A stretch of DNA of 64,000 nucleotides from Escherichia phage DT57C, in the sequence record NC_027356.1. One strand, given 5' to 3'. A model generated the notes under the pieces. That model was not told the origin of the DNA and did not search any database. It saw only the letters and a program-made list of their open reading frames with translations. Within the stretch, counting starts at the first letter, position 1; each line of letters starts with the position of its first letter. The translations under genes and the position numbers were made by a program. Positions 124-10,734 of this stretch are shown one piece after another.

Positions 124-858
124 TTACGCTACTTTTAATTTCTCAATATATTGTTGTGGGCTGCAACTATATTCTGCGCGCTCCTCCTCGGTCATACCTT
201 CCCAACATAATTGCAAGCGGTCGGCTAGGAACTGATAATCATTATCATCTTCAAGAGATTCATCAATAAAGGTTTCGCCGATCAATGTGACGCCTATTGA
301 TAGAATATCGTTAACGGCTTGCGCGTCCAGCGTTTTAAATCCATATGCCGCCGCCGCTGATAATACGCCTTTATGATCATCAATCATCGTGAAATCAGCG
401 TTCGGATATAGCTGTTTGAATAGCTCAAAATAATGGCTTTTATATATAGCGTCTTTACTGTGGTATATTTCGCTAACCTTATCAGCCGTAAAATATTTGT
501 GAAGTGTATCGCGGGAAAATACGCGGATATTGCTATTCCCACGCCCTCGCAGACCTTGTTTGCGCAAATAATAATAATCCGACTTACTCATCAGGCGAGC
601 GGTGCAAATAATGTTTAACGTGTTGGCGTCATTCATGCATTGGCGCATATAGGTAACGAGCGGCAAAAGCGTATCCTGCATTATTAACTCATGTTTGCAC
701 GCTTCATTTTTATACTTATTTAAATCTAAATCGCCTTCAATATCAAAGCAAGGCGCTACACGGTGGGCGGAGTTAATGATCGTGCCGTCCAGATCCCAAA
801 TCATTACGCGGGAAATATGCGGGTAATTGCGGGAAATATTCTTTTTATCTTGATTCAT
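124..858 (-). CDS. dmp: 5'-deoxyribonucleotidase (HAD-superfamily phosphatase), T5 dmp-like
   Basis: 244-aa ORF; N-terminal HAD motif WDLDGTI; context upstream of A1-like gene as in T5 pre-early region. Confidence 0.75.
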   Translation of the reverse strand: MNQDKKNISRNYPHISRVMIWDLDGTIINSAHRVAPCFDIEGDLDLNKYKNEACKHELIMQDTLLPLVTYMRQCMNDANTLNIICTARLMSKSDYYYLRKQGLRGRGNSNIRVFSRDTLHKYFTADKVSEIYHSKDAIYKSHYFELFKQLYPNADFTMIDDHKGVLSAAAAYGFKTLDAQAVNDILSIGVTLIGETFIDESLEDDNDYQFLADRLQLCWEGMTEEERAEYSCSPQQYIEKLKVA

Positions 859-898
859 TTTGTTACGTTCTCCATTAAAGGGATTAAGTTAATTTAAT

Positions 899-921
899 CC
901 AGCCCATACAGTGGGCTGGAG
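899..921 (-). other. Perfect 8-bp stem hairpin (ccagccca tacag tgggctgg) between 133-aa ORF and dmp
   Basis: Inverted repeat read directly; could be attenuator or processing site; lacks strong U-tract. Confidence 0.35.
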
Positions 922-932
922 TATTTCAGTCA

Positions 933-1334
933 TTAAAATACCAGACCATAAGCCAAAGCATCAGCGATAACAGTAATATCCTCGCCAGATACACCGGAAC
1001 GAATACCGGCGCATGTAAATACCTTCGCGCTCATTAACTGATCATCAAGACAAGCGGGGCAAGGCGCGACAACTGCGAAAGCTAAACCAGCTTTTGCGGC
1101 GTCAATAATAGTCGTTTCTTGTTTCATCGTATCAATGTAAACGCCTTTCGCCTTGATGCGGCTAGATAGCTTGCCCGTGGTGTAGGCGAAAGTAGTGATC
1201 TGTAGCGCCTCATTAAATTCGATTAAGTCATCAACAACGTGCCCCGCCTCGACGTGATAGCGCTCACCGGTAGAATAAACTAGGACGATTGCAGACTGCG
1301 CGCGATCGAATGGGATACGGTTGTAAGTAGTCAT
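933..1334 (-). CDS. Pre-early hypothetical protein (possibly A2-like)
   Basis: 133-aa ORF directly downstream of A1-like gene on same strand; assignment to A2 by position/size only. Confidence 0.45.
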   Translation of the reverse strand: MTTYNRIPFDRAQSAIVLVYSTGERYHVEAGHVVDDLIEFNEALQITTFAYTTGKLSSRIKAKGVYIDTMKQETTIIDAAKAGLAFAVVAPCPACLDDQLMSAKVFTCAGIRSGVSGEDITVIADALAYGLVF

Positions 1335-1403
1335 GCGTATAACTCCAATTAATTTAATAAACTTTTATGGCGGCGGTATATTTCGCCCGCCCGCCTGATT
1401 TAT

Positions 1404-3068
1404 TTACGCGAAAAATTTGCCGTTTTTAAAGTCGATTAACGTGCGCTGCCCGTTTGCATATGTAATTACATGCGTTTGCGTCCAGCTTGATGCGCCGACG
1501 TTGTAGCCCATATCGAGGCTGCCCGATACGCCAGCAGTATATACGCCGCCGTAAATGCTGGCGGTATGGGTGTGCCCCGTGTTTAATTTGCCCAACTTTT
1601 TAAATTGCTTCGGATTGCCGCGGCTCCCGTTGATGCCGTTGTGACCGTGTACGCCGCACTCAATGCCTGCAATCTTGAATGATTGATCAGTCGTTAGGAA
1701 TATGGCGTTAAACTCACAGCCTGCAACCTTGCGCAGCGCATAATCCAGCACGTTGAAAGTATCGTCATTTTCTGCAATAGCTCCATAGATCGCGGCGTTG
1801 AGGCGGTGATATAGCTCTGCGTTTGCTGGATCGTCTTTAATGTTAGCGTTGCGATCATCCAGCCAACGGGATAACGCCAGATCGTGGTTTGACTCAACAA
1901 TGATTGTTTGCGAGAAATCGCGCTCCATTGATTCCAATACACGCCCCGTGTCGATAAGATCATCTAAAACCTTATCACGTCCGGCGGCGTACTGTTTTGC
2001 TAGGAATACGCCAGATGCGCGATTGTGGTGGTTGCGTGATGTAAAGTCATGCACATCATGCACGAACTGATATTTAGGTTTAAGAATATCAAGCAAACTA
2101 TTTTCGCCCGCCCATGACGCTTCAGCACACGCCTTATCTAATTTTTCAGCGTGCACGTCGCCATACTGTAAACCTAAAACATGCCCCGATGTTTCATAAC
2201 ATCCGGCGGGAGTGGCGCAAATATTCAAATCATAAAAAACGCCGGTTTCATCCATCGTCTCAAGCTGGCGAACAAAAAATGCCCCGTCCTCGTCAAACTC
2301 GACAATCAGCGCGCCAAAGTTATGTAACGCTTCGGCCTTTTGCCCTGCTTTCTGCTGAATGTAGTTTTTTAGCGTTGCCGCTCCCGTTGAGTACATACGG
2401 CGCACTACTTCACCTTTGAGCGCTGGAACGCTTTCTGCGGTGATTTTAGCTGCTCCAATTGCCAAACCTTCAAGATCAAGCGCTGTTGCAGTCTCAGCGA
2501 ATCCAGAAAGCGGGTAGTCTGCCGTTGGCAAAACATTAATCTCAGCCATGAAAGCAAAGCGGCGACTATTTAAAAACACGTTTTTATTACAGATATATTT
2601 ATCAAAAGCGGAATCATATTTGATCCCGTCCGCACCTTCTCCATTCTGGAATCCTTTTTTGTTATAAATGAACTTGCTAACCAGCAAATCAGCGCCGATA
2701 AATTGGGCGTAATGTTCAAGTGAGGCTAAAAAGTTTTTATGCGGGAACGTGTTGTTCTGGATTGATGTTATAATGAAGCGTTTGCCCTGCTTTACTTCCC
2801 ACTGTTCAACCGTGCTAGAAATAATTCCCGCCGCCTCTGGGCGCTCGTCGTTTTTAACGGCTTTTGATGCTTTCGCCTCTTTTGGTTTCGCTGGTTTGTT
2901 TGCTTCCAGCCAATCACAAATTGCGGTCGAATGTTTTGCCGTATCGTACACCGCTTTTGATATATCGTCGCAGACTTCCAATCTAGTAGCGCGCAGACGT
3001 TTACCGTAAAAATTAAAATCAGCGGCCAGCTTCAGGATAACGGTTTGTTTTTCTGCGGAAATAACCAT
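1404..3068 (-). CDS. A1: A1-like pre-early protein, calcineurin-like metallophosphoesterase
   Basis: 554-aa ORF; phosphoesterase-type motifs (GVHGHNG, NTGHTHTAS); size and position match T5 A1. Confidence 0.7.
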   Translation of the reverse strand: MVISAEKQTVILKLAADFNFYGKRLRATRLEVCDDISKAVYDTAKHSTAICDWLEANKPAKPKEAKASKAVKNDERPEAAGIISSTVEQWEVKQGKRFIITSIQNNTFPHKNFLASLEHYAQFIGADLLVSKFIYNKKGFQNGEGADGIKYDSAFDKYICNKNVFLNSRRFAFMAEINVLPTADYPLSGFAETATALDLEGLAIGAAKITAESVPALKGEVVRRMYSTGAATLKNYIQQKAGQKAEALHNFGALIVEFDEDGAFFVRQLETMDETGVFYDLNICATPAGCYETSGHVLGLQYGDVHAEKLDKACAEASWAGENSLLDILKPKYQFVHDVHDFTSRNHHNRASGVFLAKQYAAGRDKVLDDLIDTGRVLESMERDFSQTIIVESNHDLALSRWLDDRNANIKDDPANAELYHRLNAAIYGAIAENDDTFNVLDYALRKVAGCEFNAIFLTTDQSFKIAGIECGVHGHNGINGSRGNPKQFKKLGKLNTGHTHTASIYGGVYTAGVSGSLDMGYNVGASSWTQTHVITYANGQRTLIDFKNGKFFA

Positions 3069-3165
3069 AATATTAAAACTCCATTAAAGGGATTAAGAAC
3101 GTTTGTTATTGGCAAATATTGCCAAATATAACGCTGCTTATTAACAGCGTTATAATTTGCAATAC

Positions 3166-3411
3166 TTAACTGATCGGCATCAGGCTAGAACTAACACCAC
3201 AAACAACGGCGGTAATAAAACAAAATAAGCCTAAACGCTTTGCTAACTTTGATTTGCGTTTAAAGTAATATGAATCCAGATCATTCTGGAAATAAGCGAA
3301 CAATAATGAGGCCGCTACAATAAATAAACCTAGAATTAACGATTCAGTGGGATAAAAGATCATTTTAATAATTCCAGTTAAAGGGAAATTATAGTGGGGA
3401 ATATTCCCCAC
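3166..3411 (-). CDS. Small membrane protein (2 predicted TM helices)
   Basis: 81-aa ORF, hydrophobic segments; RBS GGAG 8 nt upstream of ATG. Confidence 0.5.
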   Translation of the reverse strand: MGNIPHYNFPLTGIIKMIFYPTESLILGLFIVAASLLFAYFQNDLDSYYFKRKSKLAKRLGLFCFITAVVCGVSSSLMPIS

Positions 3412-3420
3412 TAATTAAAT

Positions 3421-3837
3421 TTATTCACCTGCGGATTGTTTTACTTCATCTGCTACGCCTAGTAATTGCGCTACGGCGTCCAGCGTTTCTAATTTTGCGC
3501 TTTCCAGACTTGCCAGATCGTCGGCGTCTTTGATAATGCCGGAATCAATGGCATGTTTAGCAATAACGCGCACATAATGCGCCTTGCGGATTGAACTACC
3601 GCCGCCAACTTTGCGCGGTTTATCGCTTTTCTGATACGCTTTTGCGCTGGTCAATTTTGAGCGAACAGACACAGGGGAAGTAGCGCCCACTGTTTTGGCG
3701 ATCTCTTTCAGGCCGTCGCTGTTTGCGAACTCTAAACCGTTTTCATTGATTAATTGCTGATACATAGAAACGGCTTTTTGGGTATTTTCTTCATTCCATG
3801 CAAATTTTGCGGATTTTTCGGTTTTAACGTTAGTCAT
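3421..3837 (-). CDS. Hypothetical pre-early protein
   Basis: 138-aa ORF; conserved initiation region tggagtttataccATG shared with ORF 3938-4189. Confidence 0.55.
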   Translation of the reverse strand: MTNVKTEKSAKFAWNEENTQKAVSMYQQLINENGLEFANSDGLKEIAKTVGATSPVSVRSKLTSAKAYQKSDKPRKVGGGSSIRKAHYVRVIAKHAIDSGIIKDADDLASLESAKLETLDAVAQLLGVADEVKQSAGE

Positions 3838-3937: not shown

Positions 3938-4189
3938 CTATGCTACAGCTTCCAATTTTTCGTTACGTTGAACAACTTTTACAACGTCGCCAGATTTAAC
4001 GCGAACACTAAAAACGGTTTTTCCGTTGTTGCTACGTTCCGTTTCTGCATATACTGCATCAATTACATCGAACGGCATGAGCGCCGCGCCTTTGATGCGT
4101 TCGGCCTTTCCGGTTGCCTCGTCTGTTTTAGTAACGAAAGGGATGAAAACGGATTGACCAATTTTTGGCGCGGTGATAGCGTTTTTCAT
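3938..4189 (-). CDS. Hypothetical pre-early protein
   Basis: 83-aa ORF; same conserved RBS/start context as neighbour. Confidence 0.5.
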   Translation of the reverse strand: MKNAITAPKIGQSVFIPFVTKTDEATGKAERIKGAALMPFDVIDAVYAETERSNNGKTVFSVRVKSGDVVKVVQRNEKLEAVA

Positions 4190-4422
4190 GGTATAAACTC
4201 CAGTTATTTGATGGATTGTTCCGCATTACCTGCTAAAAAATAATAACAGGTAATAAGAAAAAATCCGCTCACCGTTAAAATCAATTTAAGGAACTCCACA
4301 CAGGCCGCTATATCCCGTTAGGGGGCGGGGCACATTATGGCAAGTACCGGCCGTCAAATTTTACCAAGTTATCGCTCTTGTTGAATCGGGTACATTTTAA
4401 AGCCTATCGGCTAGGGCGTCAA

Positions 4423-4593
4423 ATTATTTTTCGTTTTCTTTTAAATTAGAATTCTCCCAACTGAATTGCATCTCGCAAAATATTTTCCCATCTTTATGAT
4501 GGTAAGCGATCTCGCTCCCGTGGTTAGCACAGAAAGCGATCACTGCCTCAGCTTGTTCTACCGTGATATTGTTGGCCGTTTCTTTGATTTTCA
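4423..4593 (-). CDS. Small hypothetical protein (~56 aa), not in ORF track (below size cut-off)
   Basis: Read by eye: AAGGAGACGACGAT-ATG; translation MKIKETANNITVEQAEAVIAFCANHGSEIAYHHKDGKIFCEMQFSWENSNLKENEK; coordinates approximate. Confidence 0.3.
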
Positions 4594-5220
4594 TATCGTC
4601 GTCTCCTTATAAGGTTAATAAGTTTGCCGCCGATGGGCTTTAAAATGCACCTGATTTTTAAAGAGCGCGGCGGTAAACTTTCCGCCGTGTAGTTCGTCAT
4701 TGCCGCCCTACGAGATAAATAATAGGGAATACCCAAAAAAGGTGCAACCTTAATTTTGTAAAGAAATGTAAAGAAAGCAAATACCCGCACCGCGTCCGGC
4801 GATCGCCCAAGTTTAAAGGAAACAGGCGCGCGGATACCATAAAACCGAGCTGATTGGCAAGTAATTTTTTCATTTTTATTTGCCTTGCCCTACTTGACAA
4901 AACTTAAAAAGCTCGTGGTGACGATAAACGGGCTATCCCTTTATGATGGGATACCTGAAAAATTTACCGCGTTGTAGGACGTTTTAGGCCGCTTATCTTC
5001 GATTTAACAAATATTTAACAAAAGCAAAATTGAAAAATAGTTTGAGAAGGTATTGACTTTTTAAAATCAAGACTAAACGAGTTATTTTAAAAAATTAATT
5101 AATTGACTTTTATTTGTTGTTGTGTAGTAGAAAGATAGCAGACTAATAATTGCTAGAATGATAATCATGCTGGTGATTGTAACAGACTGAACTATTAGCA
5201 GACTACTGATCCCGGAAAAT

Positions 5221-5260
5221 CTCATTAGCCAACTAACTATCTCATTAGCCAACTAACTAT
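5221..5260. repeat. Direct repeat 2 x 20 bp (ctcattagccaactaactat)
   Basis: Identical tandem copies read directly. Confidence 0.8.
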
Positions 5261-5265
5261 TTCAT

Positions 5266-5450
5266 AAGTTATAATAACTATAAAAATAATCACCGTTAAA
5301 ATAATCACTATAAAAATAATCACCATTAAAATAATAACTATAGAAATAATCACCATTATAATAATCACCATTAAAATAATCACTATAAAAATAATCACCA
5401 TTAAAATAATCACTATAAAAATAATCACCATTATTATAATCACTATAAGA
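5266..5450. repeat. AT-rich tandem repeat block (units ~12/24 bp, aataatcac[ct]a[t]taaaa)
   Basis: ~8 reiterations visible; explains spurious I/V-rich ORF 5237-5443. Confidence 0.8.
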
Positions 5451-5486
5451 AACTATCGGCTTAAGTGAGAACCACTATCATTTAAG

Positions 5487-5568
5487 TTATCCACAACGTT
5501 ATCCACAGCACAAAATGATTTGACACGATAGGCGGCGATATAAAGATTTATCCACAGACTTATCCACA
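5487..5568 (+). promoter_or_regulatory. Cluster of four DnaA boxes (TTATCCACA) in direct orientation
   Basis: Exact 9-mers at 5487, 5499, 5548, 5560; followed by LexA-like half-site ctgtatatttatccag (5579-5594). Confidence 0.6.
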
Positions 5569-5872
5569 GGTTATCCTACTGTATATTTATCCAGGGTAAA
5601 AAGATAGTGTTTACAACTGCAATCAATTTTGAGCGGCCTAAAACGCTTTCTAACGAGCTGATCGCTGTAGGGTAATATTAAAGTAAAGCCTTTACCCGTC
5701 GGCCTAGAGGCTTCGCCGTGTTTTGCTCTTTACTGCACCGCTGCGCGGTTAGCATAAAACTAGGTGTTAGGCAAGAAAAATAAAAAGTAAAGTAAACGTT
5801 GCCCCTAGAAAGAAAATAATTTTACCGGTAACATCGAAAGCGGGTAATAATTAACCTAATGTAAAGTTTTGT

Positions 5873-5902
5873 AAGGCCCGCCATAATCAGCGGCCTTTTT
5901 TG
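5873..5902 (+). terminator. Rho-independent terminator-like hairpin with T6 tract
   Basis: aaggcccgcc...gcggcc stem followed by tttttt. Confidence 0.45.
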
Positions 5903-5965
5903 TTATACTGCCCTTACACCGTTTAAGGACGGTTAAAAATTTCCCGAAAAATTTGGAGGCTTAAA

Positions 5966-6145
5966 ATGGTTATTTTTCGATCTATTCTGGCGGGTATCTT
6001 GGGCGCTATTTTAACTCTATTTGCTACCGCTTACGGTATTCAAGATTCTTATTGCGGTTTAGTAAATACTAAACCTATGGTTATTATTGGCGCGGGTATC
6101 GCTGTTTTTTCTTATTTGCTGGGCTGCATGAATAAAGGAGAATAA
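5966..6145 (+). CDS. Small membrane protein (~59 aa), first gene of small plus-strand operon
   Basis: GGAGG RBS then ATG; hydrophobic translation MVIFRSILAGILGAILTLFATAYG...; not in ORF track (size). Confidence 0.35.
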   Translation: MVIFRSILAGILGAILTLFATAYGIQDSYCGLVNTKPMVIIGAGIAVFSYLLGCMNKGE

Positions 6146-6147
6146 AA

Positions 6148-6360
6148 ATGATCCGCAACGTTTCTCTTGCTCGTTCCAAAGGTTTTAAGCTGGTGGATGT
6201 AAACACGTTCGAGCGTCCTGGTTGTAAAATCGAATATATAGCGCGGAATAAAAACGCTTTCCGCGTTACAGAAAAGAGATTCGATAAACGCGGCAACGTG
6301 ATAGCTGAAACGGTTAAATATTTTGCCACCTTTTACGCGGCCTTTCGTGGGGTATTATGA
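6148..6360 (+). CDS. Hypothetical protein
   Basis: 70-aa ORF; AGGAG RBS; translationally coupled to neighbours. Confidence 0.45.
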   Translation: MIRNVSLARSKGFKLVDVNTFERPGCKIEYIARNKNAFRVTEKRFDKRGNVIAETVKYFATFYAAFRGVL

Positions 6361-6483
6361 AGAGCGTTGTTATTGTTATCCTTGCAATGGTTGGCGGTTT
6401 TACCACCACCTTGTTTAGAAATGATCCTCTTTTGCTAGGGATCTTTATGCTTTTATCTGGTTATCTGATCGGGAGGTTATAAA
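6358..6483 (+). CDS. Small membrane protein (~41 aa)
   Basis: ATG overlaps upstream stop (ATGA); hydrophobic; by-eye call. Confidence 0.25.
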
Positions 6484-6828
6484 ATGGTGATTTATGAAGG
6501 TGATCGCCTTGTTGCTGATTGCCGTCCGGCATTGTTAGCAAACTACTTAAACCAGCTTTCGCCAGTATATAAAGGCGTTATAAATATTTATGAAGGCGGG
6601 GCGCATTATAAGATTAATGCGGTCGTTGCCCGTGAACTAGCGTTTCAATTTTTAACCTTTTCATCTTGCAATATTCAGGTCATGGGTGAGGCGTTAATTG
6701 CAGAAAATGAAGATGATTTTATTAATATCTTTCGCAAGATATGCACCGAGCGCCTGATAATGAAAGGGGCATATATTCAATCCACTGCGGATAGTATTGA
6801 AACGGCTTTTCGAAAGGTGGCACAATGA
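6484..6828 (+). CDS. Hypothetical protein
   Basis: 114-aa ORF; GGAGG RBS 6 nt upstream. Confidence 0.5.
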   Translation: MVIYEGDRLVADCRPALLANYLNQLSPVYKGVINIYEGGAHYKINAVVARELAFQFLTFSSCNIQVMGEALIAENEDDFINIFRKICTERLIMKGAYIQSTADSIETAFRKVAQ

Positions 6829-6952
6829 AGCTATATATTTTCGCGGGTAATGTTGAGGCTGCAAATGATTCCGCTGGTGGCGATAGCGTTCGCCATTATT
6901 GGCAAAATTATATTTACTAGGCGTAATGATCACGGGGCACAACTATCAGGGA

Positions 6953-6979
6953 GTGCCCCTGATTCTCAAATGAGAATGA
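6953..6979 (+). terminator. Hairpin (ggggcac...gtgcccc) at end of small operon
   Basis: 7-bp GC stem read directly; weak U-tract. Confidence 0.3.
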
Positions 6980-7182
6980 TTCTCATTTGACCGCGCCCGC
7001 GATGGTTAGCACACTAATGATTAGGGTGTTACGTGTCGCCTTGTGTGATCGTTAGCGGGCTAACTAATTTTCAAGCCTCCTCCAGATTTGCCCTTGTTTT
7101 AGTATCCCCATCAAAATAAAACGCGTTAGAAAGCGATTCAGGGCGTTTTAGGCCTATATTAGAATTATCCACTGCGTAGGAA

Positions 7183-7202
7183 TACTGTATATTTATACAG
7201 TA
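7183..7202. promoter_or_regulatory. LexA (SOS) box-like palindrome TACTGTATATTTATACAGTA
   Basis: CTGT-N8-ACAG with AT-rich spacer, matches E. coli LexA consensus at nearly all positions. Confidence 0.5.
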
Positions 7203-7211
7203 GAATAACCT

Positions 7212-7292
7212 GGGGATAAGTCGGTGGATAACGCTTCAAAATGGCTAGAATTTTGTCAAGGCAAATCGTGCTGTTGATAAGTCTGTGGATAA
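7212..7292 (-). promoter_or_regulatory. DnaA-box cluster in inverse orientation (TGTGGATAA and variants)
   Basis: Perfect box at 7284-7292, 1-mismatch box at 7224-7232, partial ttatc-core boxes nearby. Confidence 0.5.
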
Positions 7293-7309
7293 CTTAAATA
7301 ACAGTGTTT

Positions 7310-7590
7310 CTCACTTCCGTTTTTAAATGCGAATCATTATCATTTGCATTCCACTTCTTAAATGAGAATCATTTCACTTCTTGAATAGTTCTCATTCCCT
7401 TTCTTAAATGAGAATCATTTCACTTCTTGAATAGTTCTCATTTCACTTCTTGAATAGTTCTCATTCCACTTCTTAAATGAGAATCATTCCACTTCTTAAA
7501 TGAGAATCATTCCACCTCTTAAATGAGAATGATTATCATTCGCATTCCACTTCTTAAATGCGAATGATAATCATTCTCATTCGCATTCCG
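7310..7590. repeat. Tandem array of ~22-bp repeats (cacttctt[a/g]aat[g]agaatcatt), ~10 units, flanked by palindromes
   Basis: Repeats read directly; iteron-like organisation next to DnaA boxes. Confidence 0.8.
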
Positions 7591-7594
7591 GCGA

Positions 7595-7612
7595 GCAGGG
7601 CAATTGCCCTGC
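7595..7612. repeat. Perfect 18-bp palindrome GCAGGGCAATTGCCCTGC
   Basis: Self-complementary sequence read directly. Confidence 0.8.
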
Positions 7613-7617
7613 GCTTA

Positions 7618-8361
7618 TGTGCAAATCCGACAATTGCTCCAAGGGTTACGCGAGGGCATGTATGTGCAAATCCGACCCATTTTTTGGTAGTGTGCAAATC
7701 CGACCCCAAAAATTTATAAATTCGTGAGAGTGACAAATCTGTCTCCCAAAAACTCCAGCAATCACGAACTGCGTTCGAATCCTGTGGGGTATGTGCAAAT
7801 CCGACACGGTTTTTCTAGGATTAAGATGTGCGAATCCGATGAAATTTTTGTGACTTCGATGAGAGGGTGTGTGATTGTATAGGTTTGAGGAGAAGATGAG
7901 AGAGCGAGAAAAATTTTGGGGCTAGAAGTGTATGGGCGCAGGATTGGTGCGGAGCACCTGATTTGCGGGGGTTTTGGGGGATAGTGGAGATAATTTGGGG
8001 AAATTTGAGATAGGTGCAGAAAAAGTAAAATTTTATTAGCTAAAGGGGGCAATATAGCTTGACAATTGAAAATTCTTGTGGCTCTAAAAACTCAGGCAAT
8101 CATGGGCCTTCGGCCCGAAATAATGCTGCTATTTTCAGGAGATTATATGTTCCTAAAAACTTAGGCGTTTGTGCAAATCCGACCATAAATTTCTAGAAAC
8201 ACAATGTGCAAATCCGACAGTAATTCCTGGAAATGTGTTTTCAAAAAATGTCTCCTAGAAATAACCGCCCTCCCTATAACCGCCCTCCCTATAACCGGCC
8301 TAGGTATGTAACGTTGGAGGGAAACTGCCCTAGAATATGTGCAAATCCGATTAATATTTTT
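7618..8361 (+). repeat. Dispersed array of 8 copies of 13-mer TGTGCAAATCCGA(C/T), most followed by N4-6 and a T-run; interleaved CCTAGAA motifs
   Basis: Copies at ~7618, 7663, 7692, 7792, 7827 (variant), 8169, 8206, 8347; a ninth inside CDS at ~10394. Confidence 0.75.
8261..8300. repeat. Direct repeat ataaccgccctccct x2 (+ partial third)
   Basis: Read directly. Confidence 0.7.
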
Positions 8362-8725
8362 GTGTGATCCCTAGAATTTGTGCTTATCAATTTCCTAGAA
8401 ACTTAGGAGTCTGCTAGAAAGTGTTGAGCCATCCTAGCAGATGAGCGGCAACCGGTGTATCATCTTGAACACAGATATTGCCTTTAAATTTTTATCAGTT
8501 ATTTAAAAGTAAATAGTCCCCCATTTCATGTGAGATTCCTCGTGGGGCGCGTGAGTATTACGGAAGACTTAGTAATTAGATCTATACTCGTGCTGTCGCA
8601 ACGTATAGACGTAATACTAAGTGTAATAATCATCGCCCCTAGAGTTCAAAACAAGAGTTGTTTTTAATCTATGAGATTATTATAACATGTTTGGGTATGA
8701 GAATGCAAGAACTTTTTGTTAACGT

Positions 8726-9082
8726 TTATACTTCCTCCTCGAGATTGGTATTAGGATCGTAAATTTTCTTGGCTCCTGTATTTAATAGGAATCGCTCTGC
8801 AAGTAGTGGGTGAATATCAAAGAACTCTGTGCATCCTTCGAATCCCTTTAAATTACAGCGGTATTTCTTAAAGTAGATATGAGCAGCGGCTTCTAGATCT
8901 CTAGGATTATGGGTTTCATAAATCCCATACACGTATAAATCGTCAAAACCACGATAAACTATATTATCTAAGTTTAGTGTTTGAATCCTATTATGTGGAT
9001 TCACACTGATACCGATCTTTGTTCTTTTAGGGATCTTCGTCAGATCCCTATTTGCAAGAATATATGCTTTATATAGTGACAT
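8726..9082 (-). CDS. Hypothetical protein; possible GIY-YIG/T5orf172-like motif (YKAYIL...KIGIS)
   Basis: 118-aa ORF; weak motif resemblance only. Confidence 0.45.
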   Translation of the reverse strand: MSLYKAYILANRDLTKIPKRTKIGISVNPHNRIQTLNLDNIVYRGFDDLYVYGIYETHNPRDLEAAAHIYFKKYRCNLKGFEGCTEFFDIHPLLAERFLLNTGAKKIYDPNTNLEEEV

Positions 9083-9809
9083 TCTTTCTAGCCTTTAGAT
9101 AGATTCCTTTAGATGCTAGATAGATATATGTAGCAAGGAATGAAGATGTAGATCCTGTTTCTTCAAGAGTAATAGATCCTTTTGCATAACGCTTAGTTCT
9201 AGGAGCCTGGTTAAGCACAAGTGCAGTGAGACTACCTAATCCTAGCGCATCCATTAAACGTTTGAAGGAGTCCTTTTCATCGTGGATAGCATATAGAATG
9301 TAATCTTCCGCTGTAGTTAGTTCTATATCGCGATGATGTGCCACTGCAATCCGTGCTACTACAGCTCCAATCGTTCTATAAATATCTTCAAACGTAATGC
9401 TAGTTTCAAAAGCTAATGCTGGAAGATGATCGAACTTACATTTCTTAGGCGGAATAAGAAGTTGTTCAGGATAAGCTTCTAGTGCCTGACGAACGTTTGC
9501 TTCTGGGTATGTTGGCAAAGGTTCATCTATAATAACATGTAAGAAATTAGCTCTGTGTCCTTTAGCAGTTGGATCTAAAGACTTCAATACTTTGTTCATA
9601 TCTACGTATGAATACGCTAGATCTGCTTGTGGGGCATTAATATCAAACTTAATCTTCTTACCCTCCCATTTAGCAGGGAACATCTCACAAACAAACATTA
9701 CTGCATGTTTAACCTCTGGCTCCAGCTCTGATAGACATTTGTGATCTGCTGTTACTGCTAGAGCGAGAATATTCTTAAATTTATTAGCTTCTTCAATCAT
9801 ATATCCCAT
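9069..9809 (-). CDS. Hypothetical protein
   Basis: 246-aa ORF, co-oriented, overlapping stop/start with neighbours. Confidence 0.55.
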   Translation of the reverse strand: MGYMIEEANKFKNILALAVTADHKCLSELEPEVKHAVMFVCEMFPAKWEGKKIKFDINAPQADLAYSYVDMNKVLKSLDPTAKGHRANFLHVIIDEPLPTYPEANVRQALEAYPEQLLIPPKKCKFDHLPALAFETSITFEDIYRTIGAVVARIAVAHHRDIELTTAEDYILYAIHDEKDSFKRLMDALGLGSLTALVLNQAPRTKRYAKGSITLEETGSTSSFLATYIYLASKGIYLKARKNVTI

Positions 9810-10138
9810 GCCTGCTGACTATTATCACTAACTTGTGTCTTTTTCTCTCTTCGTGGTTTAAAAGTTCCTGTAGTATTACTTTTACTAGGTTCTAATTTAT
9901 ACCACAGCATTCCTAGCTGGTTAACCATATGAGCAACATTTCTAGGGGTCAATGGCGGTAGGGATTCACAGTTTGATATCTCCCTTAATATATTAAATAG
10001 TTCTGCCTCTTTAGCTTTATTGTTTACTACCACCACGTACTCTAATGTTTCTACCTCAGAATCCTCATCCTTATAGTAGAGGCTAAGAGTAATTAAATTC
10101 TCCCCAGCAGGGGCTATTTTTGTTTTACCAAATATCAT
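9797..10138 (-). CDS. Hypothetical protein
   Basis: 113-aa ORF in operon context. Confidence 0.5.
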   Translation of the reverse strand: MIFGKTKIAPAGENLITLSLYYKDEDSEVETLEYVVVVNNKAKEAELFNILREISNCESLPPLTPRNVAHMVNQLGMLWYKLEPSKSNTTGTFKPRREKKTQVSDNSQQAWDI

Positions 10139-10734
10139 TAACTACCTCTCTTATCTTCGTTAAGAGCAGCTCCTAGTGCTTCCATAATTGCATCTTCTAT
10201 ACTTCCATGCTTACTAGGATTGCTTAAGTGAATAGTATATGAGTTCCTAGAAACTCCAGAGTCCACAGGTGCTGCGCTTTTCCTATCAGACTCAAAAGCT
10301 TCTTGGGTATGTTTCAACTGTACAGAAGGCCCATAGTCTTCCCCAACTCGATAGGACTGATTAGACGACAGCGTACCACCGCAGGGAACATTGTGCAAAT
10401 CCGATGGATTATTTAATAGTGCAATACCACCTCTTGGCCACGAGTCACTAACATGAGTACTAGGACGGTTAACCTCAGTCTTCACGAGTTTATAACCAGC
10501 ATCTATTAATGCATTAATAAGGTTATCAGCTGGAATGCGAGCCTTGCCAAAAATCTCACGAGCGTTGTTGAGCCTACCTTCAAAACCTTTACATGCTCTA
10601 ATATTAGTGTGTGCAAAGGTTAGCTTCATAGATTTGAATTGTACAGTAGCAGTTAAATCTTTAAAGCTATAATCCCACGTATTCAGTTCATGATCTGGTA
10701 CTACTTGAATAGATTGCTGTGCATATAAAGTCAT
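10138..10734 (-). CDS. Hypothetical protein
   Basis: 198-aa ORF; contains one copy of the 13-mer motif. Confidence 0.55.
   Translation of the reverse strand: MTLYAQQSIQVVPDHELNTWDYSFKDLTATVQFKSMKLTFAHTNIRACKGFEGRLNNAREIFGKARIPADNLINALIDAGYKLVKTEVNRPSTHVSDSWPRGGIALLNNPSDLHNVPCGGTLSSNQSYRVGEDYGPSVQLKHTQEAFESDRKSAAPVDSGVSRNSYTIHLSNPSKHGSIEDAIMEALGAALNEDKRGS

Follow-up and report, generated by a model that had tools for sequence, protein, structure and literature searches.

A LexA-operator-like palindrome joined to DnaA boxes in the injection-stop region of T5-like phages

Phage T5 halts after injecting 8% of its genome, and both the mechanism of the halt and the host reader of the stop signal have been open questions for more than 50 years, the signal still being treated as mechanistically unresolved in recent papers. 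The window analysed here (the whole 64-kb stretch of DNA from a T5-like phage) carries a palindrome that an earlier note, made from the sequence alone, took for a near-consensus LexA (SOS) box. The locus raises the question of what such a site does in the genome of an obligately lytic phage. SOS boxes are otherwise known mostly from temperate phages, plasmids, integrons and colicin operons; if the reading is true, a strictly virulent phage family retains them. The only recent model of the stop invokes DnaA boxes, and LexA would be a second, specific and easily manipulated host-protein candidate, making it a testable candidate factor for the early steps of infection.

Sequence and score of the two boxes

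Two sites are concerned:
7183–7202: LexA-operator-like palindrome, TACTGTATATTTATACAGTA, within the injection-stop region, on the inner (left) border of the IRD' arm in Repeat Region 3
5577–5596: second site of the LexA-operator type, TACTGTATATTTATCCAGGG, on the inner (right) border of the IRD arm in Repeat Region 2

Gammaproteobacterial LexA recognises CTGT-N8-ACAG, and sites closer to the consensus are bound with higher affinity. The palindrome at 7183–7202 agrees with the canonical LexA consensus, TACTGTATATATATACAGTA, at 19 of 20 bases, the sole mismatch being central, and its core at 7185–7200, CTGTATATTTATACAG, consists of inverted CTGT-N8-ACAG half-sites around an A/T-rich spacer, as in LexA operators. 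Exact CTGT-N8-ACAG occurs four times in the window against 0.8 expected, and only the copy at 7185 has a spacer made entirely of A and T. The earlier note had also pointed to a second, degenerate copy at 5579–5594. This site, CTGTATATTTATCCAG, is real and carries the common variant half-site CCAG, but its degeneracy does not describe the element: the CTGG/CCAG half-site is a derived variant in this phage, and the 24 other aligned relatives have a perfect CTGT-N8-ACAG there.

Both sites were scored, as that note had advised, with a symmetrised LexA weight matrix built on 25 E. coli operators; the matrix is approximate, and so are all scores given here. On this approximate matrix the 7183 site reaches 25.6 bits, above all 25 training operators (13.0–23.8) and near the consensus score of 27.0, and the 5577 site reaches 21.8 bits, inside the range of the training operators; the third-ranking site of the window has just 14.7 bits. 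The best score from 100 first-order Markov simulations of the window was 12.9 on average and 22.3 at most, and in simulations with the local non-coding composition it was always 19.5 or lower. The annotation and the remaining genome sequence were taken from phage DT571/2 (KM979355.1; Tequintavirus, Demerecviridae), which matches positions 5300–7700 at 99.9% with the same coordinates. Between 64001 and 108418 of that genome, only the two right-terminal-repeat copies score at least 13 bits; the LexA-grade sites of the 108-kb phage genome are these boxes alone, two per terminal repeat. Chance does not account for the boxes; the simulations never reached 25.6 bits, and LexA-grade sites are absent outside the terminal-repeat copies. 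On sequence, the near-consensus box of the earlier note is thereby borne out.

Setting in the injection-stop inverted repeat

The box was said to be non-coding, and positions 6829–8725 indeed hold no annotated coding sequence. The terminal repeat is 7719 bp long, and the box lies about 520 bp from its end, in the large non-coding stretch where the left terminal repeat has its right end. What had been overlooked is the setting: the site forms the inner edge of the injection-stop inverted repeat and directly abuts paired DnaA boxes. The arms are named here as in T5, after bioRxiv 10.1101/866236, in a nomenclature that reportedly goes back to Wang in 2005. The surrounding features are:
5463–5594: left arm of a 132-nt inverted repeat (IRC-spacer-IRD), between two divergent pre-early transcription units
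7185–7316: right arm of that repeat (IRD'-spacer-IRC'), a candidate for the core of the injection stop signal
5487–5495 with 5499–5507 and 5548–5556 with 5560–5568, plus strand: two consensus DnaA-box pairs of the left arm
7211–7219 with 7223–7231 and 7272–7280 with 7284–7292, minus strand: two DnaA or near-DnaA pairs of the right arm
5966–6828, plus strand: rightward pre-early genes, homologues of T5.013-015, bracketed by the two box-bearing arms
124–3837, minus strand: dmp, A1 and A2, from the record annotation
7124–7145, mirrored at 5634–5655: flank motif CGTTAGAAAGCGATTCAGGGCG, an inverted-repeat match
7347–7547: 23-nt tandem repeats (T5 'DRD' type), directly right of the inverted-repeat arm

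The arms are 77% complementary, with the boxes at their inner ends, and each contains four DnaA or DnaA-like boxes. The gap between the LexA-like 20-mer and the nearest DnaA pair is 8 nt in both arms (the pair ends at 5568 on the left and starts at 7211 on the right). The 7183 copy faces the 3' end of the rightward pre-early operon, not the start of a gene.

In T5 the corresponding boxes are CACTGTATAAATATACAGGG at 6211–6230 and TACTGTATAAATATACAGTA at 9409–9428, the latter inside a misc_feature (9140–10144) annotated 'injection stop signal'; on sequence comparison, the non-coding stretch that holds the 7183 copy is homologous to this annotated signal. IRC-spacer-IRD and IRD'-spacer-IRC', the T5 Repeat Regions 2 and 3, have been proposed as the likely injection stop signal, the eight DnaA boxes of the repeat arms being conserved in 25 T5-like phages and the palindromes being treated as possible restriction-type cleavage sites (Davison, bioRxiv 10.1101/866236). 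The same paper places the start of IRD' at 9332 and the shear point of first-step-transfer DNA at about 9618 (AY587007 coordinates), and from its estimate the T5 shear point falls some 270 bp beyond the box on its right. The physical element is the same: IRD' begins with the 20 nt of the box, and IRD ends with those of its partner. The palindromes, the inverted repeat, the DnaA boxes and their conservation have already been described; the difference is that the discussion in bioRxiv 10.1101/866236 concerns DnaA, IHF and FIS, with no occurrence of LexA or SOS. The literature searched holds no genetic demonstration that the stop region arrests transfer in cis, even for T5.

The DNA around the arms is rich in further repeats. 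Just right of the box, near the presumed transfer stop, positions 7347–7587 correspond to the T5 DRD/pal cluster and contain at least six 23-nt tandem repeats (CATTYCACTTCTTRAATRRKWMTCA type) and, after these, a perfect inverted repeat of 25 nt (7522–7546 with 7557–7581); the AATGAGAATGATTCTCATT palindrome of this cluster recurs at 6969–6987. Exact 16-nt direct repeats, TATGTGCAAATCCGAC, lie at 7616–7631 and 7661–7676, with a partial third copy, GTGTGCAAATC, at about 7691; they lie no more than about 100 bp from the boundary of the terminal repeat (7719) and could relate to the formation of the repeat end or to the major nick. On the left, 15-nt tandem repeats, AATAATCACYATWAA, occupy 5300–5479 with a start-to-start spacing of 15 and correspond to T5 'Repeat Region 1'. 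They are spanned by a coding sequence annotated as 'repeat completion protein' (5237–5431, minus strand), which looks like an open reading frame made by the repeats rather than a gene. The 'spacer' of both arms contains a TTGACA (5520–5525; 7252–7257, minus strand) that is invariant in all T5-like relatives aligned; it has no acceptable -10 element at 16–18 nt and may not be a promoter element. A search of positions 4000–9000 against Rfam found no family, giving chance hits only (E of 0.24 or more, well below the gathering scores).

Conservation across the phage family

A lack of conservation among relatives had been named as evidence against the LexA reading. The opposite is decisively the case: the box is kept across the Demerecviridae down to A1 identities of 31–34%, occurring in T5 and in Erwinia, Klebsiella, Proteus, Aeromonas and Vibrio relatives as well as in several metagenomic contigs. 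Both boxes are retained in about 28 distinct T5-like contigs. Among 29 sequences of Repeat Region 3, each from a different T5-like contig (T5 included; A2 66–100% identical), the CTGT half-site is present in 29 of 29, the other half-site being ACAG in 27 and CCAG in 2; in the 25 sequences of Repeat Region 2 the box is CCCTGTATATTTATACAGTA in most. In the alignments of both regions the outer flank differs between T5-like subgroups, and the box and the DnaA boxes are unchanged.

Further away, Erwinia phage KEY (A1 65% identical) has two perfect boxes, and the box is kept in Proteus phage 1 (Novosibvirus; 41%), Aeromonas phage AhSzw-1 (Shenzhenvirus; 33%) and Vibrio phages D124 and Dax (31–34%). 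In such distant relatives the non-coding DNA can no longer be aligned, yet the box persists, and this is the decisive evidence for its conservation. Their sites, scored through alignments, mostly have 19–25.6 bits on the approximate matrix. They occur in two contexts. In one, the usual one, the box follows two tandem DnaA boxes by 8–11 nt, in a large non-coding region beside early genes; in the other it heads the A2-A1 operon and stands behind the conserved motif TTAGAATCGC...GCGTTTTAG. Across the 112 fetched loci (about 1.8 Mb), CTGTAT-N4-ATACAG is confined to non-coding DNA upstream of A1/A2. By these comparisons, a consensus-grade LexA-like operator is joined to DnaA boxes in all the lineages of the family that were examined.

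In Vibrio and Proteus relatives, TTAGAATCGC...GCGTTTTAG sequences related to the flank motif lie directly upstream of the box. An imperfect palindromic motif, TTAGAA(A/T)(G/C)GC...GCGTTTTAG, at 7124–7151 and 5630–5655 of the window, accompanies the LexA-like box from T5-like to Vibrio and Proteus phages. This flank motif may be a second protein-binding site, a candidate target of a phage protein such as A2. In Vibrio T5-like phages, near-consensus sigma-54 elements (TTGGCACGCTTATTGCT, TTGGCATGGTTATTGCT and TTGGCACGAAAATTGCC) lie 12–13 nt after the box that heads the A2-A1 operon (locus L045, 12962–12978 and 12344–12360; locus L047, 4411–4427), and the corresponding position in Proteus-type relatives is taken by TTGACA. 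It would be unusual for the pre-early region of a phage to carry sigma-54 promoters; the 64-kb window contains no sigma-54 promoter elements.

Within the box, variation is distributed unevenly. In 24 distinct boxes from about six lineages, CTG(T) and (A)CAG are fixed, and the dinucleotides on either flank and the four bases of the centre are free (TT, AA, CC, GT, AATT); the per-position information of the 24 phage boxes correlates with that of the E. coli operators at r = 0.81. The CCAG half-sites and the ATCC centre found in relatives are variants known from chromosomal LexA operators too. Among close relatives the centre flips between ATTT and AAAT, the two copies of one phage being sometimes the same and sometimes opposite, and the flip looks neutral. 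In the Aeromonas and Vibrio D124 phages, the two copies share an identical unusual core (GGAT or ATCC) in direct orientation while their flanks are inverted (locus L115, 3393 and 4923; locus L045, 9167 and 12264), which hints at gene conversion between copies.

All hosts of these phages are gammaproteobacteria with one LexA motif, and conservation cannot show whether the box tracks the LexA specificity of the host. Rhizobium phage RHph_Y48 was considered as a host-switch test, the alphaproteobacterial LexA motif being different, and was set aside: it is an Autographivirus whose A1 lies in a replication module, outside any first-step-transfer context. Some database records with T5-type A1 look mislabelled or chimeric, among them a 4.6-kb fragment named 'Listeria phage LM 4-14-1' (A1 92% identical) and a record of 261 kb, roughly double the usual genome size, under the name 'Klebsiella phage vB_Kpn_AM_K6'.

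Candidate binding proteins and known LexA systems

From the motif, its score, its position and its family-wide conservation with DnaA boxes, we infer occupancy by LexA and all the functional consequences set out below. The reading that we prefer, with a probability of roughly 0.55, is that the boxes are genuine, selectively maintained operators for host LexA that take part in an architectural LexA and DnaA complex on first-step-transfer DNA.

The possibility that the palindrome is an element of DNA structure with no dedicated protein, acting through hairpin or cruciform extrusion or through recombination between the repeat arms, would account for a nearly perfect palindrome where a long inverted repeat has its edge, for folding better than that of shuffled sequence (z = -3.0) and for an asymmetric centre that reads TT in some relatives and AA in others. 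At -4.9 kcal/mol the single-strand hairpin is weak, and changes in one arm (CTGTGT, TTTGTACAG, ATCCAG, CTGTATATAATTACAG and CTGTATAAATAAACAG) are uncompensated in the other, for which reasons the hairpin or cruciform reading was rejected and a structural role of any such kind appears highly improbable. Because CTGT and ACAG are fixed, the arm changes uncompensated and the hairpin weak, the pattern of constraint fits a protein-contact site, probably one with the specificity of LexA, rather than a stem. A conserved phage protein could equally account for a conserved palindrome, and the obvious candidate is A2, with the likeness to LexA operators due to coincidence, mimicry or competition. A2 is annotated as a DNA-binding protein required for second-step transfer and is encoded by every box-carrying phage; T5-like and Vibrio A2 proteins are 41–44% identical, so that a conserved specificity is possible. 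An arbitrary phage operator is unlikely to match the LexA consensus at 19 of 20 positions, and would not be expected to vary where LexA operators carry little information. The neighbouring conserved elements, the DnaA boxes, are also motifs of a host protein. Pfam searches found no domain in A2 or A1, and thus no recognisable DNA-binding domain in A2, and we know of no reported sequence specificity of A2. We regard a dimeric phage protein as the dedicated ligand as rather improbable.

If LexA is the ligand, its effect might be that of a classical SOS operator: LexA bound at the box would repress a nearby sigma-70 promoter, and LexA cleavage would induce a pre-early transcript, coupling early infection to host DNA damage, much as the earlier note supposed. 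Promoter-like sequences are present near several boxes. On the minus strand of the window a weak match (7191..7164) has its -35 element, TATACA, inside the box and its -10 element, GATAAT, 16 nt away; a like geometry, TATACA-18-TAGAAT, is found at the Proteus phage box; TTGACA or TTGACT follows by 3–4 nt the box heading the A2-A1 operon in Proteus-type and some Vibrio-type relatives; and T5 has a perfect TATAAT about 20 nt to the right of its Repeat Region 2 box. Against this, promoter-like matches in 4200–8800 number 13, compared with 14.3 expected from shuffled sequence, the would-be promoter flank varies between subgroups in which the box and the DnaA boxes are constant, and the top predicted promoters of Proteus phage 1 and Vibrio phage Dax lie 220–270 nt downstream of the box. 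SOS control of the phage locus, as originally stated, is left unsupported, the box having no convincing overlapping promoter and the experimentally mapped T5 pre-early promoters lying elsewhere. We think an architectural role likelier than repression of a particular SOS-inducible promoter, because the promoter evidence is weak, the best predicted promoters are distant and the 7183 copy stands at the 3' end of an operon; control of the classical kind is accordingly possible but unlikely.

In the LexA and DnaA complex that we favour, pre-existing LexA dimers would occupy both boxes when first-step-transfer DNA enters the cell, and DnaA would occupy the adjacent DnaA boxes, so that host proteins would form a complex on the DNA that enters last. 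The complex would most likely be architectural: as a roadblock, for instance, or a bridged loop between the arms, it could help to hold or insulate the DNA where injection stops, and it might be relieved by the phage A1 and A2 proteins or by loss of LexA. A roadblock must explain how entry is halted by a protein on DNA already inside the cell. A bolder version, which we consider improbable, would make LexA with DnaA the pre-existing cellular factor that executes or gates the two-step injection of T5-type phages: LexA bound to the operators would help to lock the DNA at the stop, and removal of LexA, through A1/A2 action or through RecA-stimulated cleavage after A1-triggered breakdown of host DNA, would license second-step transfer. 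We know of no report that T5 depends on recA or lexA, and a genome-wide E. coli screen for phage resistance makes no mention of lexA or dnaA.

What is new here is the LexA reading of the box together with its setting: the phage family is virulent, the box lies in the DNA that is injected first, and it is fused to DnaA boxes. No link between LexA or SOS boxes and T5-like phages was found in the searchable open-access literature, an earlier mention in older T5 papers being possible, and a literature search found no SOS boxes in virulent or lytic phages generally.

Compared with E. coli SOS boxes of the recA, sulA, umuDC and dinD type, the phage box is the same 20-bp palindrome with an A/T-rich spacer, and it scores at or above the strongest operators used in the approximate matrix. 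It differs from them in that it is not on a demonstrated promoter, belongs to an obligately lytic phage, is duplicated in the arms of an inverted repeat and is fused to DnaA-box pairs. A host precedent for interplay between the two proteins exists at the E. coli uvrB promoters, where LexA and DnaA boxes are adjacent or overlapping in one regulatory region and the proteins co-repress or compete for binding (PMC6015884). That region serves a host repair gene with mapped promoters, whereas the phage boxes lie in injection-stop-linked non-coding DNA, with a fixed gap of 8–11 nt and no mapped promoter.

With LexA-controlled temperate phages and mobile elements, the T5-like phages would share the use of host LexA through SOS boxes in their own DNA. 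CTXphi, coliphage 186 (tum) and the colicin operons are elements of this kind. Another is the temperate phage GIL01, with its gp7 (PMC4551915). In these systems LexA times induction, or the activity of a promoter, in a resident element, whereas the T5-like phages are virulent and carry their boxes in the first DNA to be injected.
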